DNA of 64,000 nt from Candidatus Methylomirabilia bacterium (GCA_041499965.1 JBGQLG010000003.1:15896-79895); one strand, 5' to 3'; positions 4,310-57,578 are shown, counted from the stretch's first letter. Translations and numbers: made by a program. Notes: a model not told the origin generated them from the sequence alone.

Positions 4310-4529
4310 CGCGCGAAGTCCAGGAATCCGCGAGCTTACTGTCGGGGGTTGCGCCGGCACCGGGGCGTTGGCGCCTCGCCTCGCGCTCCCGTGCCTCAGA
4401 CCGCCGAGATCGCGACAGCCAAGGCGAACGGGACGTCCGGGGGTGGAGCGGACGGCCCCGAGCCCAGAGCGCGGCTCGGGCCACGAGTCGACCGATCCGG
4501 TCAGTGTCGCGATGCCGTCGAGGACCTCG

Positions 4530-4808
4530 TCATCGCCCCGCCGGCGCGACCGGATCCCGCGGGACGCTCTTCCAGATCGCGCCGAGGACACGCCCGCTCA
4601 CGTAGCCCACGGTCGCGGTCACCACGACGAGCGCGACGGCCCGGGCAGGCGCGAAGGGCCCGACCTGGTAGGGCGGGGTGATGAAGTGCAGCCAGAAGAT
4701 GAAGTCGATCACCGGCTGCGCCCACTGCGCGAGCACCAGCAGCGACCACAGCAGATGCCAGCCGCCGACAAAGAGCGCCAGCACGATCCCGAGCTTGTGG
4801 GAACTCAT
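4530..4808 (-). CDS. Small membrane protein (92 aa)
   Basis: Two hydrophobic helices, [11 protein letters not shown]...FIFWLHFI; GGAGG RBS. Confidence 0.75.
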
Positions 4809-4943
4809 CCGTTTTCCTCCGGTCGCCAGCGGCTGCCCGACGCCCGCTCCACGGTGCTGCCCGTTGGCTGGCAGGCGGTCGCACGCGCGGGCGTGGGCTC
4901 GAGGAAGGGTAATCGCCGGCCCGGATCTTCGGCGACGATCGCG

Positions 4944-5240
4944 CTACGATCGCGTGAACCGCGGCGACCGGGCCACGACCAGCAGACACCCCTTGCGGCA
5001 CAGGGCGACGCCCGGCGTGCCGAGCACCGAGCAGCAGGTGACGTCGACGAACCGGCGCGTCCACTCGTCCCGCGCGAGCTCGGCGGTGGCCGGCTGCCGG
5101 ATCAGCGAACAGTGGACGCCGGTGGTCACGGGCTGCATGGCGCGCGGGAAGAGGCGTAGCACCCCCAGCACGAGCACGGTCGCGGTCGTGGAGACCACGA
5201 GGACGAGCAGTGCGCCTTCGAGCGTCGTCAGCGAGTACAT
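4944..5240 (-). CDS. Membrane-anchored Cys-rich small protein
   Basis: N-terminal TM then VHC...VDVTCCS...CRKGCL; follows the TraR/DksA gene in the operon. Confidence 0.7.
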   Translation of the reverse strand: MYSLTTLEGALLVLVVSTTATVLVLGVLRLFPRAMQPVTTGVHCSLIRQPATAELARDEWTRRFVDVTCCSVLGTPGVALCRKGCLLVVARSPRFTRS

Positions 5241-5259
5241 GGGCTTTCCCCCCGCGGCG

Positions 5260-5631
5260 TCAGTGCGCCGCTTCGGCCCGGGCTTGGCAGGTCGCACACC
5301 GGCGGGCCGTCGGCACCGCCCGCAGGCGGGTCAGCGGGATCGCGCGATGGCAGCTCTCGCACACGCCGAACACGCCGGCCTCGAGCCGGCGCTGCGCGGC
5401 GTCGATCTCGTCCATCTCGTGCCGCTCGCGACCCTCGAGCCGGGCCAGGAGGTCACCGATGGCACCGGTCGCTGCGCCCTCGCCGAATTCGCTCGGCTGC
5501 TGCGATTCGAGCGTCGCCAGCTCGTCGTCGGTGGTGGCGACGGTACGCGCCAGGCTCCAGCGCATCGCGGCCAGGCGCTGGCGAAACTCCGCGGTCACGC
5601 GCGGCCGTTTCCTGCGTGTCGACGTCGTCAT
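5260..5631 (-). CDS. TraR/DksA C4 zinc-finger protein
   Basis: Coiled-coil followed by FGVCESCHRAIPLTRLRAVPTARRCATCQ; GGAG RBS. Confidence 0.92.
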   Translation of the reverse strand: MTTSTRRKRPRVTAEFRQRLAAMRWSLARTVATTDDELATLESQQPSEFGEGAATGAIGDLLARLEGRERHEMDEIDAAQRRLEAGVFGVCESCHRAIPLTRLRAVPTARRCATCQARAEAAH

Positions 5632-5687: not shown

Positions 5688-5703
5688 TGCACTGCGGGTG
5701 CCA
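5688..5703 (-). promoter_or_regulatory. sigma54 promoter for TraR/DksA operon
   Basis: TGGCACCCGCAGTGCA; AAT-N8-TT at 5719-5731. Confidence 0.8.
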
Positions 5704-5754
5704 TCCCGGAGGTGGCGAAATTCAGGGACTTACGCGACGGGGGGAGGTCCACGG

Positions 5755-5792
5755 CGGGGCGCCGGCGCCCCGCGCGGGACTCGGTCGCCACG
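5755..5792. promoter_or_regulatory. Tandem palindromic enhancer-like sites
   Basis: CGGGGC-GCCGGC-GCCCCG cg CGGGAC-TCGGTC-GCCACG. Confidence 0.65.
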
Positions 5793-8436: not shown

Positions 8437-8452
8437 TGCAAGGCGACTGCCA
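8437..8452 (-). promoter_or_regulatory. sigma54 promoter for hsp20-CBS operon
   Basis: TGGCAGTCGCCTTGCA; AAA-N8-TT at 8468-8480. Confidence 0.82.
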
Positions 8453-8503
8453 CGGCGAAGGATCGAGAAATCACGGCGTTCGACGGGCGGCAGGTGAAGC
8501 GCG

Positions 8504-8542
8504 CGCGGCGACGGCGCCCCAGCGCGGGGCGCCGTCGCCTCA
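8504..8542. promoter_or_regulatory. Tandem palindromic enhancer-like sites
   Basis: CGCGGC-GACGGC-GCCCCA gcg CGGGGC-GCCGTC-GCCTCA. Confidence 0.65.
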
Positions 8543-8743
8543 ACGCCGATGCCGCGTCAGGGTGAGACTCGTTCGCCGGGGGGCGTCCTCACGGAGGCGA
8601 TCGAAGATGCCGCCGCCCGATGTCGTGCTTCCCGGCGGCGGCGTCGTCTGGCCCCGGCCCATCGCCGCGCTGGCCAGGCAGCAGACCATCATCGCGGCGA
8701 GAAGCGGGCACGGGAGGATGCGGGGCAACCGACAACACAGCAT
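8540..8743 (-). CDS. Small protein with signal-peptide-like N-terminus (67 aa, possibly truncated)
   Basis: MLCCRLPRILPCPLLAAMMVCCLASAAMG...; ATG 14 nt after a good sigma54 -12 box. Confidence 0.45.
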   Translation of the reverse strand: MLCCRLPRILPCPLLAAMMVCCLASAAMGRGQTTPPPGSTTSGGGIFDRLREDAPRRTSLTLTRHRR

Positions 8744-8755
8744 GCGCTCGAGCGG

Positions 8756-8771
8756 TGCAAGGCTTCGGCCA
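8756..8771 (-). promoter_or_regulatory. sigma54 promoter (divergent pair with pfkB promoter)
   Basis: TGGCCGAAGCCTTGCA; shared palindrome TGAGGC-GCGTCC-GCCTCG at 8812-8829. Confidence 0.7.
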
Positions 8772-8890
8772 GAGGGGGCCCGGAACGGTCTCGGGAGGCG
8801 CAGCCCCGGAGTGAGGCGCGTCCGCCTCGGCCGGTACCGCCAGCGATGATCGACCATCCCACAACTCTCCAGTTTCGCTCGACTGGGTCC

Positions 8891-8906
8891 CGGCACCCGA
8901 CTTGCC
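8891..8906 (+). promoter_or_regulatory. sigma54 promoter for pfkB
   Basis: CGGCACCCGACTTGCC; AA-N8-TTT at 8863-8875. Confidence 0.75.
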
Positions 8907-8923
8907 CGTGTCCGTCGTCGGCC

Positions 8924-9919
8924 ATGCTGCGCTCCGGATCGACGGCCACGCCCGAACGCGATGGGGAAGCATCCGTTCCCGCCATCGTCACACTCACGAT
9001 GAATCCGGCCATCGACGTGAGCGCGAGCGTCGACTACGTGACCCCGGACCACAAGCTTCGCTGCGAGACGCCGACCTACGAGCCGGGCGGCGGGGGCATC
9101 AACGTCGCGCGCGCGATTCGCACGCTGGGCGGAGAAGCCTTGGCGCTCTTTCCCGCCGGCGGTCCGGCCGGGGCCCTGCTGTCCTCGCTCCTCGACGCCG
9201 AGGGCGTGCGGCATCGGACCGTGCCCATCGCGGGCTGGACGCGCGAGAACATGAACGTCACCGAGCGCGTGACCCGACGGCAGTTCCGGTTCGTCATGCC
9301 GGGACCCACGCTGGACGAGCCCGAATGGCAGTCGGTCCTCGATCAGCTGGGCGCTCTCGATCCTGCCCCCCGGTATCTCGTGGTGAGCGGAAGCCTGTCG
9401 CCCGGCGTTCCGGCCGACTTCTACGCGCGGCTGGCGCGGATCGTGAGACCGCGCGGCGTCGCGCTGGTCCTCGACGCGTCCGGCGAGCCACTGCGCCGGG
9501 CCGTGGCCGAGGGGGTCGACGTGCTCAAGCCGAGCCTGCGCGAGTTCGAGGAGCTCACCGGGGAGGAGGGCGTCGAGGAGGCGCGGCTACCGGTCCTGGC
9601 CCGGCGCCTCATCGACGACCGGCGGTGCGCCATCCTGATCCTGTCACTCGGAGCGCGGGGCGTGTTCTGGATGTCGGCGTCGGAGCGTGGTCGCCTGGTG
9701 GCGCCGGCCGTGCCCGTGCGGAGCACCGTGGGCGCGGGTGACAGCATGGTCGCCGGCATCGTCCTGTCGCTCTCGCGTCAGCACACGCTCGGCGAGGCGA
9801 TCCGGTTCGGCGTCGCCGCCGGGGCCGCCTCGGTCATGAATCCGGGAACGCAGCTCTGCCGCGCCGAGGACGTCGAGCGGCTCTACGCCGAGGTGGGTGT
9901 CGCGCCGAGCACGCGCTGA
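8924..9919 (+). CDS. pfkB: 1-phosphofructokinase/Pfk-2 family hexose kinase
   Basis: IVTLTMNPAID, PGGGGINVAR, VSGSL, LKPSLREF, STVGAGDSMVAG. Confidence 0.92.
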   Translation: MLRSGSTATPERDGEASVPAIVTLTMNPAIDVSASVDYVTPDHKLRCETPTYEPGGGGINVARAIRTLGGEALALFPAGGPAGALLSSLLDAEGVRHRTVPIAGWTRENMNVTERVTRRQFRFVMPGPTLDEPEWQSVLDQLGALDPAPRYLVVSGSLSPGVPADFYARLARIVRPRGVALVLDASGEPLRRAVAEGVDVLKPSLREFEELTGEEGVEEARLPVLARRLIDDRRCAILILSLGARGVFWMSASERGRLVAPAVPVRSTVGAGDSMVAGIVLSLSRQHTLGEAIRFGVAAGAASVMNPGTQLCRAEDVERLYAEVGVAPSTR

Positions 9920-10332
9920 AAGCCGTCGAGGAGGTCGCTCTCCGTCAGCATTCCGACGAGGCGATCGCGCTCCACCACCGGCAGGGCGCCGACCCGTCGC
10001 TCGTACATCAGCCGGGCCGCCTCGCGAATCGACGTCCCCGCCCGCACGCTGACCACCCCGCGCGTCATGACGTCGCGGACCACCAGCGTGTCCAGGACAC
10101 CGCGGAGATTCTGCAGCCCGTCCTGCACCGACGGGGCGAACAGGGTCTGGCGGAGGTCGCGAGCGGTGACGATGCCGACGAGCCTCCCGCCCGGCTCGAC
10201 CACCGGCAGGTGTCGGAACTTCCGCTTGCGCATGAGGGCGGCCGCCTCGCCGAGGCGGGCGTCGGGGCGGATCGTGACGATGCGGCGAGTCATCCAGTCC
10301 CGGACGGCGATCGAACGCGTCTTCGGCATCAC
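9883..10332 (-). CDS. CBS-domain pair protein
   Basis: VRDWMT, FRHLPVV, GIVTARDLR, VGALPVV; coupled to the ppsA stop. Confidence 0.92.
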   Translation of the reverse strand: MMPKTRSIAVRDWMTRRIVTIRPDARLGEAAALMRKRKFRHLPVVEPGGRLVGIVTARDLRQTLFAPSVQDGLQNLRGVLDTLVVRDVMTRGVVSVRAGTSIREAARLMYERRVGALPVVERDRLVGMLTESDLLDGFQRVLGATPTSA

Positions 10333-14146: not shown

Positions 14147-14162
14147 TGCACTGAGCCTGCCA
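14147..14162 (-). promoter_or_regulatory. sigma54 promoter for htrA-ppsA-CBS
   Basis: TGGCAGGCTCAGTGCA; ATG 14134 is 14 nt after the -12 C. Confidence 0.78.
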
Positions 14163-14215: not shown

Positions 14216-14253
14216 TGTCCCGGTGGCGCCCCAGGTGGGGCATCGGCTCGCCG
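14216..14253. promoter_or_regulatory. Tandem palindromic sites between divergent promoters
   Basis: TGTCCC-GGTGGC-GCCCCA gg TGGGGC-ATCGGC-TCGCCG. Confidence 0.55.
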
Positions 14254-14304
14254 GGCCGCCACGGCCCATCGCGTCCAACGGTGCGAATGCACAGGCCCCG
14301 ACCG

Positions 14305-14320
14305 TGGCAGTGAGGTTGCA
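14305..14320 (+). promoter_or_regulatory. sigma54 promoter for archease-rtcB
   Basis: TGGCAGTGAGGTTGCA; ATG 14334 is 15 nt after the -12 C. Confidence 0.83.
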
Positions 14321-19952: not shown

Positions 19953-19968
19953 CGCAACTCGAATGCCA
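19953..19968 (-). promoter_or_regulatory. sigma54 promoter for IMPase-kinase::pcm-mat
   Basis: TGGCATTCGAGTTGCG; AAA-N8-TT at 19984-19996; TGGGGC-GCCTGC-GCCACA at 20019-20036. Confidence 0.82.
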
Positions 19969-20093
19969 GCGGCGTCACGAGCCAAAACAGGGAGTTATCG
20001 TTGGCGTCCCGCGCAACGTGGGGCGCCTGCGCCACACGGGGATGACGGGAGGCAGCCGCGCCGCACGAGCAGGGGACGTGTAGAGTACCCGCC

Positions 20094-22728: not shown

Positions 22729-22766
22729 CGAGAAGGCGCTGCCCCATGTGGGGTATCACTGTCCCA
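22729..22766. promoter_or_regulatory. Tandem palindromic sites between divergent promoters
   Basis: CGAGAA-GGCGCT-GCCCCA tg TGGGGT-ATCACT-GTCCCA. Confidence 0.6.
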
Positions 22767-22872: not shown

Positions 22873-22888
22873 TGGCATCCGCGATGCA
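22873..22888 (+). promoter_or_regulatory. sigma54 promoter for baeRF-carS
   Basis: TGGCATCCGCGATGCA. Confidence 0.72.
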
Positions 22889-24744: not shown

Positions 24745-24782
24745 TGGGGCGCCGGTGCCCCATCTGGGGCAGCCGTGATCGG
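24745..24782. promoter_or_regulatory. Tandem palindromic enhancer-like sites
   Basis: TGGGGC-GCCGGT-GCCCCA tc TGGGGC-AGCCGT-GATCGG. Confidence 0.7.
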
Positions 24783-24836: not shown

Positions 24837-24852
24837 TGGCAACGCGGATGCA
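24837..24852 (+). promoter_or_regulatory. sigma54 promoter for BON'-USP-nrdJ
   Basis: TGGCAACGCGGATGCA. Confidence 0.75.
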
Positions 24853-28071: not shown

Positions 28072-28087
28072 TGCAAGCGACCCGCCA
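28072..28087 (-). promoter_or_regulatory. sigma54 promoter for CBS gene
   Basis: TGGCGGGTCGCTTGCA; tandem sites TGCGGA-N6-GCCTCA tc TGGGGC-N6-GGGACA at 28150-28187. Confidence 0.75.
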
Positions 28088-28256
28088 GGTCGGGGTACGC
28101 GAGACTGCGCGAATTCGCGTACGTTCGCGGCACGTGGTGGGTGGTGGTCTGCGGACGCTGCGCCTCATCTGGGGCGAGCCTGGGACACGGCGCGCCTCAC
28201 GCCCCTCGCCGGCCCTTGAGCGCCTGGACATCGAGGATCGCGAGCAACCTGGTCGA

Positions 28257-30533: not shown

Positions 30534-30549
30534 TGCATCAGCGATGCCG
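30534..30549 (-). promoter_or_regulatory. sigma54 promoter for small Cys protein and acyl-CoA ligase
   Basis: CGGCATCGCTGATGCA; tandem sites CGAGGC-N6-TTCCCA tg TGTCCC-N6-GCCCCA at 30600-30637. Confidence 0.68.
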
Positions 30550-30685
30550 GAGTCGAACGCTGGAGTTTCGAATGCTTCGCCGCCGCGCGGCGGCGGCGGC
30601 GAGGCATCGGATTCCCATGTGTCCCGGCCTCGCCCCACGGCGCGGGATCGCCCGGCCCAGCCGTCGCACCGTTCCTGGCATCACC

Positions 30686-31006: not shown

Positions 31007-34883
<3,877 letters not shown>

Positions 34884-35059: not shown

Positions 35060-35097
35060 TGGGGCAGCGGCGCCTCACGTGAGGCGCTCACGCTCCG
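35060..35097. promoter_or_regulatory. Tandem palindromic enhancer-like sites
   Basis: TGGGGC-AGCGGC-GCCTCA cg TGAGGC-GCTCAC-GCTCCG. Confidence 0.7.
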
Positions 35098-35150: not shown

Positions 35151-35166
35151 TGGCAACACCGATGCA
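35151..35166 (+). promoter_or_regulatory. sigma54 promoter for BON-USP-USP
   Basis: TGGCAACACCGATGCA; AACTCCGAGATT at 35122-35133. Confidence 0.77.
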
Positions 35167-37972: not shown

Positions 37973-38046
37973 CCTCCCTGCGGTGCTGATGCCCCAGTGG
38001 GGAACCGGCCGCTATGGCAAACTCCTGGAATCACGGAGCTCGAGCG

Positions 38047-38062
38047 TGGCAGTGTCATTGCA
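38047..38062 (+). promoter_or_regulatory. sigma54 promoter for pal operon
   Basis: TGGCAGTGTCATTGCA; AA-N8-AAT at 38019-38031; TGCGGT-N6-GCCCCA g TGGGGA at 37979-38003. Confidence 0.82.
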
Positions 38063-43556: not shown

Positions 43557-43572
43557 TGCAACGGCACTGCCG
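43557..43572 (-). promoter_or_regulatory. sigma54 promoter for adaptor-ftsH
   Basis: CGGCAGTGCCGTTGCA; AAA-N8-TT at 43588-43600. Confidence 0.8.
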
Positions 43573-43625: not shown

Positions 43626-43662
43626 TGGGGCGCCCGTGCGGCGCTGGGGTGACGATGCCCCA
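43626..43662. promoter_or_regulatory. Tandem palindromic sites between divergent promoters
   Basis: TGGGGC-GCCCGT-GCGGCG c TGGGGT-GACGAT-GCCCCA. Confidence 0.68.
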
Positions 43663-43704: not shown

Positions 43705-43720
43705 CGGCACGCCGGTTGCC
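43705..43720 (+). promoter_or_regulatory. sigma54 promoter for ABC ATPase-permease-MFS
   Basis: CGGCACGCCGGTTGCC; ATG 43734 is 15 nt after the -12 C. Confidence 0.78.
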
Positions 43721-47632: not shown

Positions 47633-50600
47633 TCACCGCTCGTTCTGGCGCGACCCCATCGTCACCTGGACCTCGTGGATGCGACCGTCCGTGAGGCGTG
47701 GCAGGATCGGCGGGTCGAGACGCTCACCGTCGAGCAGCATTCGCTCGACGCCCGAGCTCACGCCGCGTGGGTTGTCCACCTGGATGCGAACGATCGTGGC
47801 GCCGTCGTGCCAGACGACCTCGAACCCGGGCCAGGCCGCGGGGATGTGCGGCTCCAGGTGCCACCCGCCCTCCGACGGCCGCATGCCGAGGATCTTCTCC
47901 AGACCCAGGCGGTACGCCCAGGCCGCGGCGCCCGTGTACCAGGTCCAGCCGCCGCGGCCGCTCCACGGCGGCGCCGCGTAGACGTCGGAGGCCAGCACGT
48001 ACGGCTCGGTGCGGTAGAGGGCCGCCGCCTCGGGAGTCAGCGCGCGCCGGATCGGGAGCAGCCGCTGGAACAGGTCCACGGCGTGCTCGACGTCGCCGAG
48101 CTCGAGCAGCGCCCACAGGACCCAGATCGCCGCATGCGTGTACTGCCCGCCGTTCTCCCGGACGCCGGGCGGATAACCGCGGATGTAGCCGGGATCGTCC
48201 GTGCTCTCTGCGAACGGCGGCGCCAGGAGCAGGATGAGACCGTCCGGCTCCTTCACGAGGCGCCGCATCACCGCCTCCATCGCGGCGGCGGCTCTCGACT
48301 TTTCCGCCGCTGACGAGAGCACTGCCCACGACTGGGCCACGGAATCGATCTGGCACTCGGCCCTCTCGGCCGACCCGAGCGGGGTGCCGTCGTCGTAGTA
48401 CCCTCGCCGATACCAGGCGCCATCCCAGGCCGTCGCCTCCAGGGCGGCGCGCAGCTCCTCCGCCTGGCCTCGGAGCGTCTCCGCACGAGCGCTGTCGCCG
48501 AGGCGCGCGGCCACGCGACCGAAGCGCGTCAACGTCGCGTGCAGGAACCAGCCGAGCCACACGCTCTCGCCGCGGCGGCCGGCGCCGACGCGGTTCATCC
48601 CGTCGTTCCAGTCGCCGCTGCCGAACAGTGGCAGTCCGTGCGCGCCGGCGGTGCGGCCGCGGTCGATCGCGGCCAGACAGTGGGTGTAGAGCGTGGCGCG
48701 ATGCGGTCCGGGCTCGAACCGTGCGTACCGCTCGACTTCGTCCGGCTCGAGCGGCTCGCCCGCCAGGAACGGTATCGCCTCCTCGAGGATGGTTGCGTCG
48801 CCGGTCGCCTCGACGTAGTGCGCCGTCACGAACGGAAGCCACAGCAGATCGTCCGAGCACCGTGTCCGCACGCCGGCGCCGGCCGGCGGATGCCACCAGT
48901 GCAGGACGTCCCCGGCCTCGAACTGGTGGCGCGCCGCCTCGAGGATGTGGTCGCGGCAGAGCGCGGGCAGGCCATGAATCAGCGCCGCCACGTCCTGCAG
49001 CTGGTCGCGAAAGCCGAACGCGCCGCTGGACTGGTAGAAGCCGGTCCGTCCCCAGAACCGGCTGGCCAGCAGCTGGTACAGGAGCCAGCGGTTGAGCATC
49101 AGGTCGAGCGCAGGGTCCGGCGTGCGCACCGTGACCGCGCCCAGTCGCGCATCCCACTGCCGGTTCAGCTCGGTCCACGCCGCCTCGACGACGGCGCGGT
49201 CACGGTACTTCGTGACGAGATCCAGCGCCTCGTCGCGGCCGGCCGCCTGGCCCAGCATGAAGTGCGCGTGCACCGTCGCGCCGGGGGCCAGGTCGAGGGA
49301 GATCTGCAGCGCTGCGCATGGATCGCGGCCCGCCCGGACCGTGCCCGCCAGGCCGATGCGCCGCAGCGCCGCCGGCGTCGCGTAGCCGCCGTGTCGACCG
49401 AGGAACTCCAGCCGGTCGGCGGTCAGTCCGCGGAGCTTCGCGCTCACCGCCACGAATGCGACACGGGCTGCGAAGTCCTCGCTCCACGCATTGCGTGCGA
49501 GCAGCGCTTCGGACGCCGGATCGAACTCCGGGACGACGAACGCCTGGGACTGCTCGCGCGACGTTCCGAGCACCCACTCGACGTAGTACGTCACCGTGAC
49601 CGTGCGCGGGCGGTCCAGGCGGTTCGTCAGCGCGAGCTCGACGAGCTTGACGGGGTCGTCGGGCGCTACCCAGAGGCGCACGCTCTGCTCGAGCCCGTGG
49701 CTGCGGTGAAGGAACCGCGCGTAGCCGGCGCCGTAGGCCACCTGGTAGGCGCCGTCCGCCGGGGCGGGCCGGGGCGTCGGACTCCACACGGCGCCGGTCG
49801 CCTCGTCGCGGAGGTACAGCACTTCTCCCGGCTCGTCGGAAATCGGATCGTTCCGCCACGGCGTCAGCCGGTTCTCGCCGCTGTTCTCCGCCCACGTGTA
49901 GCCACCCCCCGACTCCGTCACGACGAAACCCAGCCGCCGGTTGGCCACCACGTTGACCCACGGCGCCGGCGTCGACTGACCCGGCTCGAGATGGATGATG
50001 TACTCACGGCCGTCGGCGGCGAAGCCCCCGAGCCCCAGATCGAACAGCAGCGTGTCCGGTCTCGGCAACGTCTCCGGCGCTTCGGTGGGCGGCGGCGAGC
50101 TCGGAGCGAGCAGCGGCAGCCTCGCCGGCTCGCCAGCCAGTCGAGCGAGGTGCTGACCGATGCTGCCCTGCGAGCCGTCGAGCACCACGCGGGCCGCCGA
50201 CAGCAGCAGCGTGCGATCGGCCCCGTCGATCCGGGCCGCATGGATCACGAACACGCCTCCGAGCCGATCGCGAGAGGCCTCGGCGCCGGCCTGGACGAGG
50301 GCGCGCTCGACGGGCTCGTCCATCTCGGCCACGTAGCCTCCGGCCCGCTCGTTGAGGATCACCACGTCCACGCAGACGCCACGCCCCCGCCAGAACCGCT
50401 GGGCGCGCAGCACCGATGGCAGGATGGCCGCGTCCTCGGCCGAGCCGATGCGCACCAACAGGATGGGGAGGTCGCCCGAGATCGCGTGCTTCCACAGGGA
50501 GCGCTGTCCGAGGTGGTTCAGGGCCAGTGTGGCGGCGGAGGCCCGCAGGGCGTCGTGCGAGCAGAGGAGGAGTGAGAGGAGCGTTGCGGCCGCGGGAAGA

Positions 50601-53600
50601 TCGTGTGGGGCGAGCTCCAGATCGGCCGCTTCGATCTCGCTGCGGCGGCGCGCCAGCTCGAAGCTCCACTCGAGCGCGGGGAGCGACCGGTAGCGGCGAG
50701 CGAGCGCCAGGACGCCCTCGCGAGAGCTGGCGGCGAGCATGACGAACCCCAGCGATGTGGCGCGATGTCCCGGCAGCTCGACCTCGGCCGACAGCGCCAT
50801 GATCGGATCCAGCGTCGCGCCCGTCATGCCGGCGCCGAGGGGCCCCGCGCCGTCGAGCGCGGCCGGCCTTCGAGTCGTCCGCCCGCGTCCCACGAAGCGT
50901 TCCCGGGCCGTCTCGTACCCGGCTGGCCGAGCACGTCCCGCCGGCAGAACGAGCAGGTGCGCGAGCCAGGCGTCGGGTCCGCCGCCGGAGCGCGGGCGGC
51001 GATGAAAGATCAGGGCGTGCAGATCCTCGAGGTACTCGCTCTCCACGAAGAGCTTGCTGAACGCCGGATGCCGTCGGTCCTCGGCGGCATCGCCGACGAC
51101 GACTTCGGCGTAGCTGGTGACCTCGAGCCGGCGCCGAAACGCGGTCTGGTTGCGCACCGTCACGAGCCGCACTTCCGCATCGTCGGCCGGCGCCACACAC
51201 ACCTGCTGGCGAAGCGAGACGCCATGGACGCGCCGATGCGTCTCGACCATGTGGGCGTGGAACGTCGTCTCGCCCTCGCCGGGCGCCAGGGACCACGCGA
51301 GCCTGCGCGCGGGCTCGCGCACGAAGAGCCGGAATCCCGGGGCAGCGAGGGTGCGGTCAGCCTGCTGGCGGGTCAGGGCCACGGCGCCCCAGCTGCTGGC
51401 CCCTCCGCCATCCGAGACGAGGGTCTGATAACGGCCGTTGGAGAGCACGTGGGCCTGCGGGAAGCCTGCGTCCGGACGGGCCGGCCAGGGCTCGAGCGGC
51501 GCGCGCCGCGGCGCCGCCGTGCGCCGCGGGCCTTCCGGCACCAGGCGTGTCCGCCGCAGGGGCGCCGCGGTGGCGGGGCGCTCGAAGGCCAGCGCCTCCG
51601 TGGTCTGGACCACCGGGTCGGCATGGAAGCGGCGTACCATCGGGTGTCCGCAGAGCAGGTTGTCCACGGCGACCAGGATCATGCCCTGGTGGTGGGCCAT
51701 GAACGAGCGCACGATCGCGTGGTGCGTGCCCTCGGCCAGACGCGAGGCTGTGAAGTCCACCGCCTCGTAGAGGCCGTATCGCCCCATGAGTCCGAGGTGC
51801 TCCAGCCGCCCGAGATTCGCCATCACCGCCTCCGGCGCGAACGGCAGCGCGAGCAGGCAGGCATACGGTGCGACGACCACGTCGTCCTCCAGCCCTCGCT
51901 TGAACCCGAGGTCGGGAACGCCGAAGGCGCGATACTGATAGTTGCGGTGGTCGTCGAACCGGTAGTACCCCGACTCCGACATGCCCCACGGGACGCCCCG
52001 TCGCCCGGCGTAGGCGATCTGGATCCGTACGGCGCTCGCGCACGCTCGACCCATCAGGCTCTCCGGTGCCTCGCGGAGCAGCAGCGTCGGCATCAGGTAC
52101 TCGAACATCGTGCCGCTCCACGACAGCAGCGCGCTGCCACCATCGACGCGGCAGAAGGGGCGGCCGAGGTGGAGCCAGTGCTCCTCGGGCACGTCGCCCT
52201 TCGCGATGGCGACGAAGCTGGCCAGCCGGGCCTCGGACGCGAGGAGATCATAGTGGTGGGCATCCGGGCGATCCGTGGCGACGTCCTGTCCGATATAGAA
52301 GAGCCGCCGGCTTTCGTCGTAGAGAAAGGTGAAGTCCATCGCGTCGAAGAGCGCGTCGGTGCGCCCGGCAAGCCCGGCGAGGCTCGTGAGGACGGTCCGG
52401 GCGGCGTCCTCGGCCCGGCCGATGGCCTCTCGAAGCCCCGCCGCCCAGGCTCGGACGCCGGCCATGCCGGCGGCGTCGACGGGCAGGGTATCGAGTTGCT
52501 TCGCCAGCCGCGTCACGGCGGCGCTGGCACTCTCGCAGGCCGAGGGCAACCCATGCAGCGTAGGGTCGAGGGAGAGGCATCGCTCGAACTCATCGCGCAC
52601 CTCGCCATTCAGGACGAGGGGCGCGCTCGCGCCCGGCACCTGCCAGGGAAGGTAGAGCTCGATGTCGCGCCGCATGGCTCCGAGGTGCTGGCGTACCTCG
52701 GCGGACCAGACGCGAAGCTCGGCGAGCAGGTCCTGGTCGAGGTCCTCGCGGCCCGGGGCGATCGCCGACAGGAGGGTACGGTCGAACTCGGCGCATCCCT
52801 GCTCGAGGAGCCGGGCAATGCCGGGTGCCCACGCCCGCCGCTGCCCCTTCAGGGCCGCTGCCTCCTGGCGCGCCCTCGCGACGCAGGCGCGAAGGCCGGC
52901 GAACCGCGCCCGGTCCTGCCGTCGAACGCGGCCGTCGATGACCTCGCCCAGGATGTCGAGCGTGTCGAGCAGGCCGTCCCATCCGGCAGGCCCGATGATG
53001 GGGGCGTGGACGAGCTCCAGGCATCCCTGCTTCACGGTCAACAGCGAGGCGGCCAGGTTGCCGCTGTCCACCGTGGAGACGTAGCGGGGCAACAGCGGCG
53101 TGAGATCGGCGGTGTCGTACCAGTTGTAGAAGTGGCCGCGATGGCGCTCCATCCGCTCGAGGGTGTCGATCGTGTTCCCGAGACGCTGGACCACCGACAG
53201 CAGACCCGCATGGCCGAGGTCGTGGGCCGAGAGCGTGGCGAGCTGCAGGAATCCGATGTTCGTCGGCGAAGTCCGTCGTGCGATCTCCCCCCGGGGCTCT
53301 TCCTGGAAGTGGTCCGGTGGAAGCCACTGGTTCTCCGGTCCGACGAACGTGTCGAAGAAGAGCCAGGTCCGGCGTGCCAGCAGACGGAGGCGACGAGCCT
53401 GGCCCTGCCCCGGTGCCGGCGGCCGGTCGGGCCATGCCCGGCCGACGATGTCGGCGATCTCGGGGGCGAGGAGCCAGAGCAGCAGGACGCCAAGCGCGGC
53501 GGGCAGCGCCGCCGGCCGGGAGATCGCGAGGAGCGCCCCCGTGCCGAGCGCGGCCAGCGGCGCCGCCGCCATCTCGCGCCAGAGGGGCCGGCGTGAGCTG

Positions 53601-56089
53601 GTGCCGCCGAGCATCGAGGCGATCCGCGCTGCGGAGGTCCACTCGAGCAGGCGGCGTTTCCGGCGCAGGCGGACGAGCGTGCGCAGGATGGCATCGGCCA
53701 GGACGGCCGCGCGATGCGGCAGGAAAGCGACGTGCAGGATCCAGAGCGCCGAGGCGGGTCGGAGCCGGAGCCAGACACCGCGGATGGCGGCAGGCAAGGC
53801 CGCCACCCGGTGGGCCGACACGAGACCCCCCATCGCCTCGCTGAGCAGCGGCGTCGCCAGCGGGAGGACGCCCAGCGCAGTCCAGATGACGGGCCAGCCG
53901 GGGAACAACGCCCACGCGAGGAGCAGGAAGGCGAGCAGCGTGGGAGGAAGCAGCGTGCGCCGCAGGTTGTCGACGATCTTCCAGCGCGAGATCAGCGACA
54001 GCCGGTTTGGCCCCCGGCCACCGCCCGCCAGGGGCACGCGGCGGCCGAGCCAGGGCAACAGTTGCCAGTCTCCGCGCGCCCAGCGGTGCAAGCGCCGCCA
54101 GTATCGGCGATAGTCGACTGGATAGTCCTCGAAGAGCACGACGTCGCTCACCAGGCCGGCTCTGCCGTGGATGCCCTCGAACAGGTCGTGGCTGAGCAGC
54201 GTGTTGTCGGGCACGCGTCCCTGCAGGCTGCGCTCGAACGCGACCGGGTCGTAGATTCCCTTGCCGACGTAGATCCCTTCACCGAACAGATCCTGGTAGA
54301 CGTCCGAGGTCGCGCCGGCGTAGAGGTCGAGGCCCGGGTCTCCCGCGAAGAGGCGGGTGAACCGCGACGCGGCGGCGCCCAGGGGGGTCACCTCGACCCG
54401 GGGTTGCAGGACCGTATAGCCGGCACTGACGCGGCCGGTGAGGGGATCGAACTCCGCCCGGTTGAGCGGGTGGGCGAGGGTGGCGACGAGGCGATGCGCG
54501 GCGCCCCGAGGAAGCTCGGTATCGGCGTCGAGCGTGAGCACGAACCGAATGGAAGGCAGGATGCGCGGATCACCCACGTGGCCGGCGAAGGTGGTCGTCT
54601 GATCTCCGGCCAGCAGGCGGTTGAACTCGGCGAGCTGGCCTCGCTTGCGCTCCCATCCCATCCAGCAGCCCTCGCTGGGGTTCCACAGTCGCTTGCGATG
54701 CCGCAGATGAAACGGTCCGGTGTCTGTCCCCCCGTATCGCGCATTGAGCGCACGAACGCCCTCCTCGGCGCGCCGGAGCAGGTCGGCGTCGTCCGGCATC
54801 GATTCGGCGGGCGCGTCGGCCAGGGTGACCAGCAGCGCGAGATGGAGGTTCGCGTCCGCGTTGGCCAGCCAGTGGACCTCGAGCCGGGACACGATCGCCG
54901 CGACGTCGTCACGCGAAGCCAGGAGCACCGGCACGGCCGCCATGGTCCGGCAGTCGGCGGGGATGCCCTTGCGGAAGTCCATCTTGGGCAGGACACGCGC
55001 GGGCAAGAGGCGGGTCGTGAGGAGGTTGACGAGACTGACGCCGATCGTCGTGGCCGGGACGACGGCGAGCGCCATGCCCGACGCGGCGACGGCGAGGCTG
55101 GCGCCGGCCATGAGCAGTGCCACGCCCAGCCCTGTCACATGTAGCGCGGCGACCAGGAGGATGGCTCCGAGGTACCAGGGGGTCGGATGACGCTCGAGCC
55201 CCCGCCGCCATCGGGTACGCCAGCGGGAACGATACACGACGATCCGTTCGAGGCCGACGACGCCCTGGCCGATGAGGTGGTCGCCGACATGGCGGCTCCG
55301 ATCTCCGGTACTCTCCCCGGACAAGCGGATGGCCTCGCGCGCCACCGCGTCCTCCGACCAACCGCTCCGGGCGGCCAGGTCCTCGACGACACCGCGGTAG
55401 CGATCACGCGTATCGAAATCCATGCTCGGGTAGACGCCCGCGGGATCCTCACGCAGGATCCGCTCGGTCTCGCTGACCTGTTCGAAGACGGCGTTCCAGT
55501 CGGTCGTCTCCAGCGTGCGCAGACTGCGGATGCATGCGGGCAGGGTCTGGTCGGCCGGCGGCTGCCCCGGCAGGCCTTCTGCCTGGAATGCGCTGATGGT
55601 GGCGGCCGCCAGGGACTCGAGGAGAACGATGCGGAGCAGCACGGGCAGCGCCCACACCTCGGCGATGGTGAGTGGCCGTCGCGTCTGGAAGTCGGCGACG
55701 AGGAGCGTGATCTGCTCGACTTCGACGTGATGCCCGCCGGCCGTGACGATCTCCCGGGCCAGCTCGTAGGCCACCGGGTGCCCGCGCAGCTCCCCGTCGG
55801 CCAGACGAGGAAGCCGCCCCTCGAACACAGGCGGGAACTCCTCGCGAACCAGCTGGAAGGCTCGTTCGACGATGTAGTAGTTGTCGAGCAGCCATTCCGC
55901 GGCCGGGTGGTCCGACCCAGGGCCCCCCGCGGCGAGTCGGCGAGACGTCGTGGCGAGAGTCTGCTCGGGGCCTCGCAAGCGGTCCACAAGGTGTGGAGCT
56001 CGACGCCGGGCCGGCAGCGGCGCCGTACTCGCCAGGCGTCGAACCCGTTCGCGCACGTCACCGGCACTCACGACCAGGCCAGGAATCAC
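47633..56089 (-). CDS. ndvB: Cyclic beta-1,2-glucan synthase (GT84 + GH94 domains), 2818 aa
   Basis: AEWLLDNYY, WMGWERKRG, TLDADT, LSHDLFEG, RWARGDWQ, YDLLASEARL, YQSSGAFGFRDQLQD, GDWNDGMN, PPGVRENGGQYTH. Confidence 0.93.
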   Translation of the reverse strand: MIPGLVVSAGDVRERVRRLASTAPLPARRRAPHLVDRLRGPEQTLATTSRRLAAGGPGSDHPAAEWLLDNYYIVERAFQLVREEFPPVFEGRLPRLADGELRGHPVAYELAREIVTAGGHHVEVEQITLLVADFQTRRPLTIAEVWALPVLLRIVLLESLAAATISAFQAEGLPGQPPADQTLPACIRSLRTLETTDWNAVFEQVSETERILREDPAGVYPSMDFDTRDRYRGVVEDLAARSGWSEDAVAREAIRLSGESTGDRSRHVGDHLIGQGVVGLERIVVYRSRWRTRWRRGLERHPTPWYLGAILLVAALHVTGLGVALLMAGASLAVAASGMALAVVPATTIGVSLVNLLTTRLLPARVLPKMDFRKGIPADCRTMAAVPVLLASRDDVAAIVSRLEVHWLANADANLHLALLVTLADAPAESMPDDADLLRRAEEGVRALNARYGGTDTGPFHLRHRKRLWNPSEGCWMGWERKRGQLAEFNRLLAGDQTTTFAGHVGDPRILPSIRFVLTLDADTELPRGAAHRLVATLAHPLNRAEFDPLTGRVSAGYTVLQPRVEVTPLGAAASRFTRLFAGDPGLDLYAGATSDVYQDLFGEGIYVGKGIYDPVAFERSLQGRVPDNTLLSHDLFEGIHGRAGLVSDVVLFEDYPVDYRRYWRRLHRWARGDWQLLPWLGRRVPLAGGGRGPNRLSLISRWKIVDNLRRTLLPPTLLAFLLLAWALFPGWPVIWTALGVLPLATPLLSEAMGGLVSAHRVAALPAAIRGVWLRLRPASALWILHVAFLPHRAAVLADAILRTLVRLRRKRRLLEWTSAARIASMLGGTSSRRPLWREMAAAPLAALGTGALLAISRPAALPAALGVLLLWLLAPEIADIVGRAWPDRPPAPGQGQARRLRLLARRTWLFFDTFVGPENQWLPPDHFQEEPRGEIARRTSPTNIGFLQLATLSAHDLGHAGLLSVVQRLGNTIDTLERMERHRGHFYNWYDTADLTPLLPRYVSTVDSGNLAASLLTVKQGCLELVHAPIIGPAGWDGLLDTLDILGEVIDGRVRRQDRARFAGLRACVARARQEAAALKGQRRAWAPGIARLLEQGCAEFDRTLLSAIAPGREDLDQDLLAELRVWSAEVRQHLGAMRRDIELYLPWQVPGASAPLVLNGEVRDEFERCLSLDPTLHGLPSACESASAAVTRLAKQLDTLPVDAAGMAGVRAWAAGLREAIGRAEDAARTVLTSLAGLAGRTDALFDAMDFTFLYDESRRLFYIGQDVATDRPDAHHYDLLASEARLASFVAIAKGDVPEEHWLHLGRPFCRVDGGSALLSWSGTMFEYLMPTLLLREAPESLMGRACASAVRIQIAYAGRRGVPWGMSESGYYRFDDHRNYQYRAFGVPDLGFKRGLEDDVVVAPYACLLALPFAPEAVMANLGRLEHLGLMGRYGLYEAVDFTASRLAEGTHHAIVRSFMAHHQGMILVAVDNLLCGHPMVRRFHADPVVQTTEALAFERPATAAPLRRTRLVPEGPRRTAAPRRAPLEPWPARPDAGFPQAHVLSNGRYQTLVSDGGGASSWGAVALTRQQADRTLAAPGFRLFVREPARRLAWSLAPGEGETTFHAHMVETHRRVHGVSLRQQVCVAPADDAEVRLVTVRNQTAFRRRLEVTSYAEVVVGDAAEDRRHPAFSKLFVESEYLEDLHALIFHRRPRSGGGPDAWLAHLLVLPAGRARPAGYETARERFVGRGRTTRRPAALDGAGPLGAGMTGATLDPIMALSAEVELPGHRATSLGFVMLAASSREGVLALARRYRSLPALEWSFELARRRSEIEAADLELAPHDLPAAATLLSLLLCSHDALRASAATLALNHLGQRSLWKHAISGDLPILLVRIGSAEDAAILPSVLRAQRFWRGRGVCVDVVILNERAGGYVAEMDEPVERALVQAGAEASRDRLGGVFVIHAARIDGADRTLLLSAARVVLDGSQGSIGQHLARLAGEPARLPLLAPSSPPPTEAPETLPRPDTLLFDLGLGGFAADGREYIIHLEPGQSTPAPWVNVVANRRLGFVVTESGGGYTWAENSGENRLTPWRNDPISDEPGEVLYLRDEATGAVWSPTPRPAPADGAYQVAYGAGYARFLHRSHGLEQSVRLWVAPDDPVKLVELALTNRLDRPRTVTVTYYVEWVLGTSREQSQAFVVPEFDPASEALLARNAWSEDFAARVAFVAVSAKLRGLTADRLEFLGRHGGYATPAALRRIGLAGTVRAGRDPCAALQISLDLAPGATVHAHFMLGQAAGRDEALDLVTKYRDRAVVEAAWTELNRQWDARLGAVTVRTPDPALDLMLNRWLLYQLLASRFWGRTGFYQSSGAFGFRDQLQDVAALIHGLPALCRDHILEAARHQFEAGDVLHWWHPPAGAGVRTRCSDDLLWLPFVTAHYVEATGDATILEEAIPFLAGEPLEPDEVERYARFEPGPHRATLYTHCLAAIDRGRTAGAHGLPLFGSGDWNDGMNRVGAGRRGESVWLGWFLHATLTRFGRVAARLGDSARAETLRGQAEELRAALEATAWDGAWYRRGYYDDGTPLGSAERAECQIDSVAQSWAVLSSAAEKSRAAAAMEAVMRRLVKEPDGLILLLAPPFAESTDDPGYIRGYPPGVRENGGQYTHAAIWVLWALLELGDVEHAVDLFQRLLPIRRALTPEAAALYRTEPYVLASDVYAAPPWSGRGGWTWYTGAAAWAYRLGLEKILGMRPSEGGWHLEPHIPAAWPGFEVVWHDGATIVRIQVDNPRGVSSGVERMLLDGERLDPPILPRLTDGRIHEVQVTMGSRQNER

Positions 56090-56094
56090 CGGGC

Positions 56095-57132
56095 TCAGTG
56101 GCCCGGACGGCTCCGCGCCGCCATTTCGGCGCGCGTCGGCCCCCGCGCGCCCAGGCCGAGGTCCTGCAGCACGAGGATCGGCCGGGTGCTTTCGGCCAGG
56201 AGGCGGGCGCTGACACTGCCGTAGCGCTCACTCGCATCGGCCGTACGGCCGTGGGCGCATACCACGATCAGATCGACGTCGGCCCCCTCCGCCAGCGCCC
56301 GAATCGCCGGCGCCCGCCGGGACGATACGACGCTTTGCACGCTGACGCGAAGCGCCTGGCCAGCCAGCCCACTCTGCAGCTCACGCAGGTACCGCTCGGC
56401 TTCCACCCGGTTGCGCTCGGTGAGCTGCGAGGCGACGGCCACGTCGTCCGCGGACGGTGGCATGCGCCGAGGCATCTCCGGCTCGGGCACCACGTGGGCG
56501 AGGATCAACTCGGCGTCATGCGCGCGCGCCAGAGCGACGGCGAGTGTGAGGACGGACTCGGCCCGTGGCGAGCAATCCAGGGGCACGAAGATTCGGCGCA
56601 AACGAATCTCGCCGACGGGCCGTTCATCGGCGGTGTGCGCGGGGACGACGAGGACCGAGCTGTCGGCGCGGGCCACGACTTTCTGGGCGGTACTGCTCAG
56701 GACCCAGCCGCTGAGCCCGCCTTCACCGTGGGTCGACAGGACGACGAGATCGACGTCGTGTCCCCTGGCGAAATTGATGATCTGTTCGGCGGGCCGGCCC
56801 TCCAGCAACTCGGCGGCCGAGGTCAATCCATCCGCCTTCAGTTCGCCATCCAGCTTTGCGAGCTGGCTGTGCGCCTCCGCCCGCCGGATCTGCCACTCCA
56901 CGGCGTCGTGAGCGTGGCGCGGCGAGGCCGCGGTGACCGGTGGCTCGAGGATACGGAGGAGCGTGATGCGCGCAGCGAACACCCGTGCCAGGGCAACGGC
57001 CCACGGAAGCGCGCACTCTGCGAGCGCCGACCCATCCAGCGGCACCAGCAGGTGCTCGATGGTCAGCTCTGGGCACCCGATTTCATGCTCGCCGCCGGGC
57101 GGTCCAACCGCGGATGGTCTACTGGATCGCAT
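56095..57132 (-). CDS. Tandem-domain universal stress protein
   Basis: LLVPLDGS, LVVLSTHG, IFVPLDCS, LIVVCAHGRT, YGSVS; GGAGG RBS. Confidence 0.93.
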   Translation of the reverse strand: MRSSRPSAVGPPGGEHEIGCPELTIEHLLVPLDGSALAECALPWAVALARVFAARITLLRILEPPVTAASPRHAHDAVEWQIRRAEAHSQLAKLDGELKADGLTSAAELLEGRPAEQIINFARGHDVDLVVLSTHGEGGLSGWVLSSTAQKVVARADSSVLVVPAHTADERPVGEIRLRRIFVPLDCSPRAESVLTLAVALARAHDAELILAHVVPEPEMPRRMPPSADDVAVASQLTERNRVEAERYLRELQSGLAGQALRVSVQSVVSSRRAPAIRALAEGADVDLIVVCAHGRTADASERYGSVSARLLAESTRPILVLQDLGLGARGPTRAEMAARSRPGH

Positions 57133-57264
57133 GGCCGATCCCTCCCCCCCGTCGTGTCGGGTGTGCAGCTCACCGCCGGCGGCACCTTCGTTACGGCAGG
57201 GGCCTGAGGAGACGTTCCCTTCTAGGGGAACCTCCGATTTGCGAAGCGATGTCAGAACTGTGAC

Positions 57265-57280
57265 TGCAACGTGCGCGCCA
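57265..57280 (-). promoter_or_regulatory. sigma54 promoter for USP-glucan synthase
   Basis: TGGCGCGCACGTTGCA; TGGGGC-N6-GGGGCA a TGAGGC-N6-GCCGCC at 57333-57369. Confidence 0.77.
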
Positions 57281-57578
57281 GGACTTTCCCGTGCGTTTCG
57301 TGCCGAACCCGCGACATGGAAGCCCAGCGAAGTGGGGCGCCGGAGGGGCAATGAGGCGGAGACGCCGCCCCGTTCCCTGTCTTGACTGCGGCGTGGTCGC
57401 GAGGATCGGCCGGGCAGCCGCCATCGCGATGCGCTACGCGAGCTCCAGCAGCGCGAGGGCGGGTTTCCGTCGGCGCTCGAGCACCGGCACGTGGCATTGC
57501 TGCACCACCTGTCGCATCGATGTCCCACGCTCTCCCTCGGTTCCGGGCGCAAGTTGTGGGATTCGCTGGCGTGGGACT

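Follow-up and report, generated by a model that had tools for sequence, protein, structure and literature searches.

What does an 18-bp palindrome do in front of nearly every putative sigma-54 promoter of a single gene island, and which protein acts there? The question is raised by a stretch of 64,000 nucleotides (hereafter the window) from a Candidatus Methylomirabilia bacterium, corresponding to positions 15896-79895 of the 81-kb contig C3 in an assembly of 5.8 Mb and 329 contigs. A first-pass annotation had noted the palindrome, TGRGGC-N6-GCCYCA, and had taken it for the site of one activator controlling the island. Our comparisons indicate that the palindromes are very probably enhancer (upstream activating) sites of sigma-54 promoters. 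It also appears likely that one NtrC-type activator, encoded on the small contig C262 and perhaps fed by a kinase, docks on them and drives the sigma-54 promoters of the island.

The repeated 18-base palindrome is real. With up to two mismatches, TGRGGC-N6-GCCYCA occurs at 36 positions of the window, which has 71% GC, as against 19.8 +/- 4.4 in shuffled sequences (none of 100 shuffles reaches 36), and 17 of these positions fall in the zones listed in the first-pass annotation, which make up about 1% of the window. In a motif-blind 6-mer test on the 150 bp upstream of 18 sigma-54 candidates, TGGGGC/GCCCCA tops the enrichment, with 16 occurrences versus 37 in the remaining window (11.8-fold, binomial p 1.7e-12), followed by TGAGGC/GCCTCA (11.5-fold). 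A count of exact 5-mer dyads with spacers of 0-14, which gave 2-4 copies per dyad, was too strict and was replaced by k-mer enrichment and a position weight matrix (PWM). The consensus of the iterated palindromic PWM is YGRGGCRnCGnYGCCYCR, with the core TGGGGC-N6-GCCCCA. When the 30 sites listed earlier were scored, 17 had at most two mismatches, nine had three and four had 4-5, the worst four (of the type of 5775, 24765, 28170 and 37998) having just one good half-site each. The variant half-site TGTCCC/GGGACA recurs three times in the window (14216, 28170 and 30620), as had been annotated.

The position of the palindromes relative to the promoters is what points to enhancers. Each of the 16 zones is accompanied, within 160 bp and in the fitting orientation, by a -24/-12 candidate, with at most two mismatches at 15 of them and three at the 30600 zone. 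Of the 21 sigma-54 candidates in the window (at most two mismatches), 19 are preceded at a distance of 25-220 bp by a PWM site scoring 10 bits or more, which bears out the description of a site before nearly every promoter; the two candidates without such a site (23794, plus strand, and 34406, minus strand) sit in coding regions. In most modules the site centre lies 59-62 bp from the T of TGGCA, or two helical turns further at 80-83 bp. Zone 22729 is an outlier, with centres at 115 and 135 bp. The sites are found about 85-105 bp upstream of the expected transcription start, the classic place of an enhancer. Paired sites start 19, 20, 20, 21 and 21 bp apart, leaving the 1-3 nt between 18-mers that had been reported, and the paired dyads therefore lie on one helix face; the weak partner of a pair is often just a half-site. 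Divergent promoters are served by four zones (8791, 14216, 43626, and 57333/57490 as a zone pair).

Alignment of 22 modules brought out a third block that the first-pass annotation does not mention, an A/T-rich element of the form YAA-N6-8-GAWTTC located 15-29 nt upstream of TGGCA (for example at 5718-5732, 38018-38032 and L031:4150-4175). GWWTY is present in 19 of 26 modules; its frequency is 5% in random 40-mers and 15% among a set of 379 sigma-54 candidates outside the modules. For YAA-N6-8-GWWTY, present in 11 of the 26, the corresponding frequencies are 0.07% and 2.6%. An ungapped profile anchored on the promoter exposed this element but smeared the palindromes, because the sites stand at either 60 or 80 bp. 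Its place, and in part its sequence, would suit a bend site of the IHF type; five genes of the HU/IHF family are present in the genome. The module accordingly reads one or two dyads, a spacer of about 20 bp, the A/T-rich element, a spacer of about 14 bp, and TGGCA-N6-TTGCA.

Genome-wide, 150 PWM matches of at least 12 bits were found, of which 27 are on C3, and they cluster 41-100 bp upstream of sigma-54 candidates, with 27 in three 20-bp bins versus 0-5 in each other bin. A sequence-only profile of the whole module (R1, covering sites, A/T-rich element and promoter) yields 24 matches at E <= 1.5e-4 in the 5.8-Mb genome, three of them outside the training set, and the next match has an E value of 0.003. 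These matches are confined to four contigs: C3 with 20 (15 in the window, four upstream and one downstream of it), C262 with two, and C260 and C197 with one each. The C260 module precedes a universal stress protein (USP) and CBS gene, and that on C197 precedes genes for an AMP-forming ligase and a 2-oxoacid dehydrogenase E1. The genome has three perfect TGGGGC-N6-GCCCCA palindromes, each of which belongs to a module. Bare palindromes with at most one mismatch, counted against a reversed control, distinguish genomes poorly: 39 versus 15 in the genome itself, 18 versus 31 in G018, 10 versus 20 in G053, 9 versus 7 in G037, 18 versus 18 in G071 and 32 versus 23 in G043. The suggestion that the motif could define the regulon genome-wide is hence sound for the motif combined with promoter and spacing, and does not stand for the motif alone, 9 of the 39 sites being module sites. 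Coincidences of PWM site and promoter on C285, C43, C44, C9, C13, C47, C80, C154, C174 and C78 were rejected as modules, since the whole-module profile does not support them and some are intragenic; the one on C78 is near another activator gene. Downstream of the USP-CBS pair on C260, a gene on the plus strand (L034:1190-4345) encodes a 1051-amino-acid AAA/TPR/BTAD-type protein that could be a second-tier regulator.

The genome contains 26 strong Sigma54_activat genes (>200 bits, E <= 7e-59), and a Sigma54_activat search found none of them in the window or elsewhere on C3. The sole strong activator gene on any of the four module-bearing contigs is C262:4232-5635, on a contig of 6.8 kb. Its 467-amino-acid product matches Response_reg (99 bits), Sigma54_activat (239 bits) and the helix-turn-helix (HTH) family HTH_8 (27 bits) in Pfam, and GAFTGA is found in the translation. 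A perfect palindrome stands 24 nt past the stop codon of this gene, followed about 50 nt on by TGGCATTGCCACTGCA and then by a USP and DUF308 gene; the second C262 module precedes an open reading frame (ORF) without family assignment, a USP gene and a formate/nitrite transporter gene. The regulator scores below every listed NCBIfam equivalog cut-off (AtoC, NtrC, NtrX, GlrR, ZraR, RtcR, NorR and others), the best scores being 462 for AtoC (cut-off 714) and 434 for NtrC (cut-off 559), and it is 75% identical to a protein of a Candidatus Rokubacteria metagenome-assembled genome. We consider it probable that this regulator binds the palindromes.

Comparison with relatives argues for the same protein. 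Regulator orthologues in 30 relatives show 60-90% identity, versus at most 53% for paralogues; in a search for regulator-related loci, one of 80 loci exceeded 50% identity and the rest were mostly paralogues. In 13 of 20 ortholog loci the regulator gene has a PWM site scoring 11 bits or more behind it, and 11 of the 13 have a sigma-54 candidate there too; 7 of the 20 have neither. The aligned intergenic regions behind the orthologues keep exactly three blocks, namely the tandem palindromes, the A/T-rich element and the promoter, and what is conserved in the palindromes is their sequence, not their pairing. The HTH segment NIS-AAK-AG(I/V)DRKT-HRL is kept in 10 of 11 aligned ortholog rows (the 11th, from G015, is an unrelated frame) and differs in paralogues read in frame. 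In the near-complete genome G007 (4 contigs), the stretch C1:550658-728981, which begins about 100 bp past the end of the orthologue at 550553, holds 22 of the 24 modules, and all seven modules of G006 and all four of G012 lie within 40 kb downstream of the regulator orthologue.

The adjacency of regulator and palindrome is found in relatives of families f1, f2, f4, f8 and f10. In G043 (f10) a PAS kinase gene lies directly upstream of the regulator, and a perfect palindrome begins 31 nt past its stop; in G071 (f8) a PAS-GAF kinase gene, again directly upstream, and the regulator are followed by two palindromes and a promoter; in G088, where the kinase and regulator genes lie side by side in divergent orientation, the palindrome adjacency is also kept. 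The G071 sites (L157:3786-3893) are of the TGGGAC/GTCCCA type, and their sequence suggests that binding specificity may have changed gradually across the phylum. Of 151 genomes sampled from the phylum, 72 have modules and 82 a regulator orthologue (the genome tallies include one unpublished genome, G084). Within the family (n=93), 44 genomes have regulator and modules, 3 the regulator only, 17 modules only and 29 neither, which gives an odds ratio of 25 among genomes that, being related, are not independent; three or more modules are present in 33 of 47 family genomes with the regulator versus 6 of 46 without it. Together with the geometry, the confinement to four contigs and the adjacency on C262, the relatives and this co-occurrence support the proposal of the first-pass annotation that one activator with a Fis-type HTH may control the island.

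A candidate sensor is encoded at C3:5370-6617, inside the island, where a cytoplasmic PAS-HisKA-HATPase_c kinase gene is followed by a module. Orthologues of this kinase are island genes in G007, G006, G012 and G132, and in G088 the orthologue is a neighbour of the regulator. The PAS domain of the C3 kinase matches the haem domains of FixL (PDB 1d06, 1dp6 and 8js5; E 4e-18 to 1e-14 over about 125-135 residues) as well as the haem-PAS domain of E. coli DosP, and in alignment to 8js5 and 1d06 a histidine of the kinase falls on the FixL histidine that we take to be the proximal haem ligand. A haem-based gas or redox signal is plausible for the kinase; that the regulon as a whole answers to oxygen or redox through it is a more tentative suggestion.

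From the motif, its geometry, the confinement to the island and the regulator linkage, all of which are read in the sequence, we infer the binding, kinase pairing, IHF-aided looping and signal of the following scheme. Dimers of the C262 regulator would sit on the dyads, and phosphorylation, for which the PAS histidine kinase is the proposed donor, would lead to assembly of the active ring. DNA looping, aided by IHF at the A/T-rich element, would bring the ring to the sigma-54 holoenzyme, where it would spend ATP to open the promoter. The output would be some 24-28 promoters in one island, which spans 81 kb or more in this genome and about 180 kb in a relative, providing protein quality control, RNA and DNA repair, an oxygen-independent nucleotide supply, ribosome hibernation and many USP and CBS proteins. 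The gene set so controlled resembles a hypoxia or dormancy regulon.

Several observations weigh against this scheme. Among the 46 family genomes in which no orthologue was detected, 17 still contain one module or more, and six of the 17, which are 81-93% complete, contain three or more. Three genomes with an orthologue show no module, one of these being 100% complete. Families f7 and f8 carry homologues of 59-61% identity, yet give 0 of 18 and 0 of 12 profile matches, and no palindrome was found beside the regulator homologue in the f7 genome inspected (G037). The evidence for the regulator is guilt by association, and the gene could belong to the island without governing it. Thirty of the 39 sites with at most one mismatch lie outside modules, so the bare palindrome is not diagnostic; since the weak partner is often just a half-site, the presence of two dimers is uncertain; and the A/T-rich element differs at two core positions from the E. 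coli IHF consensus. As for the kinase, the column of the oxygen-contacting arginine of FixL holds a leucine, and its NCBIfam FixL score of 192.7 is far below the cut-off of 850. The 60% homologue of G037 was considered as module-linked and rejected: a kinase gene lies upstream, but a putative tRNA gene and thrS lie downstream. The stretch directly behind that homologue (L154:6230-6330) resembles a tRNA gene and stands in place of a palindrome.

A rival reading has the enhancer sites bound by one of the 25 other sigma-54 activators of the genome or by a hetero-oligomeric complex, and the C262 regulator as mere cargo. For it speak the number of strong activator genes (26) and the 17 family genomes with modules and no detected orthologue; hetero-oligomeric sigma-54 activators occur in Myxococcus. 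We nevertheless find this unlikely, as no second activator is encoded on the four module-bearing contigs, regulator and palindrome are adjacent in five families, and the island begins at the regulator gene in G007, G006 and G012. Most of the modules-only genomes are fragmented assemblies, in which the threshold of E <= 1e-140 misses split genes.

It is also conceivable, though quite improbable in our judgement, that the palindromes bind a non-enhancer factor, such as a repressor or co-regulator of another HTH family, with the true activator working from solution or from other sites. The GGGAC/GTCCC-like variants superficially recall NarL/DosR-type boxes, and binding at the palindromes is a prediction from sequence. 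A repressor site would, however, be expected to overlap the promoter, whereas the palindromes occupy the enhancer position with a bend-site-like element in between, and divergent promoter pairs share them at equal distances (14216-14253 and 43626-43662). Sigma-54 promoters moreover require an activator, and neither 6-mer enrichment nor module alignment revealed a further conserved upstream element. There is very little to be said, finally, for hairpins (terminators, REP-like elements or RNA structures) or for a by-product of the high GC content. Arms of 6 GC-rich base pairs around a 6-nt loop could fold, the C262 copy is directly behind a stop codon, and palindromes with at most one mismatch are found throughout GC-rich genomes. 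Watson-Crick pairing of the half-sites is nonetheless at the level given by independent halves, with 3 compensated versus 48 one-sided changes, and none of 30 sites is flanked by a T-run; without base-pair covariation or T-run the palindrome is no hairpin or terminator. Its register is fixed to promoters and not to gene ends, and neither the shuffled sequences nor the relatives, in which sequence and not pairing is kept, agree with such an origin.

NtrC-type enhancers of sigma-54 promoters are known from glnAp2 of enteric bacteria and from nifH-type promoters with their IHF site. The modules share with them dyads that stand in tandem on the same side of the helix, some 100 bp before -24 GG/-12 GC, and a bend-site-like element between, and the candidate regulator shares with their activators a receiver, an AAA+ domain with GAFTGA and a Fis-type HTH. 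They differ in half-site and spacer, TGGGGC-N6-GCCCCA being unlike the commonly described NtrC, NifA and other sites, and in the large number of promoters (about 24-28) packed together in the island. The closest solved structures to the C262 regulator are those of Aquifex aeolicus NtrC1/NtrC4 (4l4u, 1ny5 and 3dzd; E 1e-94 to 4e-86), a likeness that covers the receiver and AAA+ domains; their DNA sites differ. With FixL the island kinase shares the PAS fold and proximal histidine followed by HisKA and HATPase_c, and it differs in the replaced arginine, in its low NCBIfam score and in the proposed partner, which is NtrC-type rather than FixJ-type.

The DosR/DevR regulon of Mycobacterium tuberculosis includes Hsp20, USPs, an NrdZ-type class II reductase, PfkB, CBS proteins and a hibernation-type factor. 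This content is strikingly parallel to that of the island, and in both cases a haem-sensing kinase, here a candidate one, stands upstream. DosR is, however, a NarL/LuxR-type regulator at sigma-70-type promoters, in contrast to the AAA+ candidate at -24/-12 promoters described here, so that the likeness is one of function, not of family. The USPs of the DosR regulon are also mentioned in a paper on the nearest described system, NmpR of Myxococcus xanthus (PMC11841059). According to that paper, NmpR (of NmpRSTU) is an NtrC-like, hypoxia-induced regulator that acts on sigma-54 promoters through two dyad sites (GCGCA-N5-TGCGC, 14-15 bp between sites; seven promoters bound), with CBS-domain, USP and terminal (cbb3) oxidase genes among its targets and a haem-dependent kinase input through a protoglobin kinase in a multi-step relay (PMC11841059). 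Compared by description, the two systems share an NtrC-like regulator, sigma-54 promoters and CBS, USP and oxidase genes; the NmpR consensus is not matched by TGGGGC-N6-GCCCCA, and seven promoters and a relay there contrast with about 24 modules and a single candidate PAS kinase here. Literature searches, with subscription journals and supplements outside their scope, found no printed description of this motif, and the accessible part of a 2025 survey of sigma-54 regulons contains neither 'Rokubacter' nor 'Methylomirabil' (PMC12316311). The matches to TGGGGC/GCCCCA in one sigma-54 paper turned out to be mutagenic primers. Within the literature searched, the mechanism is that of a textbook NtrC-type enhancer and the site is previously undescribed; what stands out is the size and compactness of the regulon, the rigid architecture of the cassette and the uncultured phylum.

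These comparisons lead to a broader proposal, which we put forward with considerable doubt: that the Rokubacteria carry a sigma-54-driven counterpart of the mycobacterial DosR regulon, with a FixL-like kinase, one NtrC-type regulator and an island of 80-180 kb with about 25 operons. If this is true, the haem-PAS kinase would respond to falling oxygen, or else to some gas or redox signal, and so turn on a 'survival island' whose products serve as chaperones and as USP/CBS energy sensors, repair RNA and DNA, reduce ribonucleotides with B12 and put ribosomes into hibernation. It would be an unusually large sigma-54 regulon for a single activator, and a convergent solution to dormancy in a never-cultured phylum. 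Rokubacteria are abundant in soil and sediment, and because they have no cultured member nothing is, to our knowledge, known on their gene regulation. What is supplied here is a testable cis-element, a named candidate regulator and candidate sensor, a regulon of about 25 promoters and a profile with which modules can be recognised, as they were in 72 of the 151 genomes. These could guide cultivation (oxygen regime, resuscitation conditions) and the interpretation of metatranscriptomes, and the compact modular cassette of enhancer, bend site and promoter at fixed spacing lends itself to study in a heterologous host.

The genes of the window, called from third-position GC and named with Pfam and NCBIfam, are nearly all related to stress, repair or dormancy. 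Protein quality control is represented by a GroEL paralogue, Hsp20, HtrA, FtsH and a LonB-like protease, and repair by archease with RtcB, a protein-isoaspartate methyltransferase fusion and PolX with an NAD-dependent ligase. There are six CBS-domain proteins, at least six USPs and BON-domain proteins, a DksA-like protein, a class II (B12) ribonucleotide reductase, an HPF-like protein whose Pfam match is below the cut-off, and a MacAB-like exporter. Metabolic enzymes comprise a PfkB kinase, phosphoenolpyruvate (PEP) synthase, an archaeal-type S-adenosylmethionine (SAM) synthetase and inositol monophosphatase. Upstream of the window, genes on C3 that stand behind modules encode cytochrome oxidase subunits I and II, DUF2267, acetate kinase, an ADP-forming acyl-CoA synthetase and four further USPs.

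RNA contigs from three metatranscriptome libraries of two studies cover, at 95-99% identity, groEL and the operons of dksA and CBS-hsp20. Such cover would fit expression of these operons in close relatives and is no proof of it, because RNA libraries can contain DNA. The same contigs give next to no cover in bins 8503-13171 and leave the palindrome zones uncovered, which we did not count as evidence; nor did we count their upstream ends, 18-50 nt short of the predicted starts, which come from a single study and from contigs, which cannot show starts.

Table 1. Enhancer zones, sigma-54 promoters and associated features, in window coordinates unless a contig is named. Bits on promoter rows are whole-module profile scores and bits on zone rows are scores per site.
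Feature	Position	Strand	Genes or sites	Score and remarks
Palindromes of the 8..23 candidate	C3:15801, 15831			just before the window
Sigma-54 candidate TGGCAGGGCTGTTGCT	8..23	+	upstream of HAD-like gene	18.2 bits; profile weak
GroEL paralogue	2634 to about 4250	-	own sigma-54 promoter	NCBIfam GroEL 754 bits, above cut-off
Sigma-54 promoter TGGCATCCGCACTGCA	4294..4309	-	groEL	50.4 bits
Enhancer zone	4361..4398		4361-4378; 4381-4398	14.1 bits; weaker
Sigma-54 promoter TGGCACCCGCAGTGCA	5688..5703	-	dksA-like gene and two small ORFs (5598-4530)	50.9 bits
A/T-rich element TAAGTCCCTGAATT	15-29 nt upstream of the 5688..5703 promoter			
Enhancer zone	5755..5792		5755; 5775	15.0 bits; half-site partner
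Sigma-54 promoter TGGCAGTCGCCTTGCA	8437..8452	-	hsp20 and run of CBS-domain genes (8383-5796)	48.8 bits
Enhancer zone	8504..8542		8504; 8525	14.6 bits; 16.6 bits
Weak sigma-54 candidate TGGCCGAAGCCTTGCA	8756..8771	-		19.0 bits
Enhancer zone, common to divergent promoters	8791..8829		8812; 8791	12.4 bits; weak
Sigma-54 promoter CGGCACCCGACTTGCC	8891..8906	+	pfkB-family kinase (8999-9919)	32.5 bits
Sigma-54 promoter	14147..14162	-	htrA, PEP synthase, CBS gene (14134-9883)	24.7 bits
Enhancer zone between divergent promoters	14216..14253		14236; 14216	13.3 bits; TGTCCC variant
Sigma-54 promoter TGGCAGTGAGGTTGCA	14305..14320	+	archease and rtcB (to 16218)	34.0 bits
Sigma-54 promoter	19953..19968	-	inositol monophosphatase, APS-kinase-like/PCMT fusion, archaeal-type SAM synthetase (19938-16548)	45.1 bits
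Enhancer zone	20019..20065		20019; 20048	17.1 bits; 10.8 bits
Enhancer zone, farther from promoter than others	22729..22766		22729; 22749	12.3 bits; 14.3 bits
Sigma-54 promoter TGGCATCCGCGATGCA	22873..22888	+	baeRF-family protein and CarS-like protein (to 24570)	
Enhancer zone	24745..24782		24745; 24765	20.5 bits, perfect palindrome; half-site
Sigma-54 promoter	24837..24852	+	BON, USP, class II ribonucleotide reductase (to 27553)	34.4 bits
Sigma-54 promoter	28072..28087	-	CBS-domain gene (28016-27597)	26.0 bits
Enhancer zone	28150..28187		28150; 28170	10.3 bits; GGGACA variant
Weak sigma-54 candidate CGGCATCGCTGATGCA	30534..30549	-	small ORF and AMP-binding enzyme (30505-28257)	16.1 bits, E 0.07; 3 mismatches
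Enhancer zone	30600..30637		30600; 30620	11.7 bits; TGTCCC variant
Sigma-54 promoter GGGCACTACTCCTGCA	34747..34762	-	PolX-PHP, NAD-dependent DNA ligase, GYD protein (34728-30686)	
Enhancer zone	34847..34883		34847; 34866	13.0 bits; 16.0 bits
Enhancer zone	35060..35097		35060; 35080	19.8 bits; 7.9 bits
Sigma-54 promoter	35151..35166	+	BON-domain protein and two USPs (to 37260)	47.5 bits
Enhancer zone	37979..38015		37979; 37998	15.5 bits; half-site
Sigma-54 promoter TGGCAGTGTCATTGCA	38047..38062	+	OmpA-like gene and downstream genes	48.9 bits
Sigma-54 promoter	43557..43572	-	HlyD-family gene and ftsH (to 40233)	41.9 bits
Enhancer zone between divergent promoters	43626..43662		43645; 43626	17.6 bits; 9.6 bits
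Sigma-54 promoter	43705..43720	+	ABC ATPase, FtsX permease, MFS transporter (to 47001)	36.0 bits
Sigma-54 promoter TGGCGCGCACGTTGCA	57265..57280	-	tandem USP, probably 2784-amino-acid cyclic-glucan-synthase-like gene (57132-47633; co-transcription inferred)	27.8 bits
Enhancer zone	57333..57369		57352; 57333	12.4 bits; 6.1 bits
Enhancer zone	57490..57527		57490; 57510	11.1 bits; 14.7 bits
Sigma-54 promoter CGGCACCGTCGTTGCT	57579..57594	+	HPF-like ribosome hibernation factor (57643-57990)	44.3 bits; Pfam below cut-off
RNA contig upstream ends	4249, 4240; 5646, 5623; 8408, 8394		groEL; dksA; hsp20	not counted

Some of these genes deserve separate mention. The chaperonin was at one point taken as archaeal-type (group II) from its Pfam name, Cpn60_TCP1, which was wrong given its NCBIfam assignment (GroEL, 754 bits); no co-chaperonin ORF was called between the GroEL paralogue and its sigma-54 promoter. 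Genes of archaeal flavour do cluster in the island: the methionine adenosyltransferase (16548-17753, minus strand), archease and RtcB (14223-16218, plus strand), a baeRF family-10 release-factor-like protein with a CDP-archaeol-synthase-like protein (22901-24570, plus strand), and the LonB-like protease (62186-64000, minus strand), whose 802 amino acids extend beyond the end of the window. A 2784-amino-acid protein of the cyclic beta-1,2-glucan synthase type, with GT2, glucoamylase-like and GH94 domains, is encoded at 47633-55987 (minus strand); its gene is directly behind the tandem-USP gene and is possibly co-transcribed from the sigma-54 promoter of the latter. An APS-kinase-like P-loop domain is fused to protein-L-isoaspartate O-methyltransferase at 17750-19111 (minus strand), two such domains stand in tandem in a single gene at L032:11409-12515 (minus strand), and a similar double APS-kinase-like gene is found behind the regulator in G088 (L155:6419-7525).

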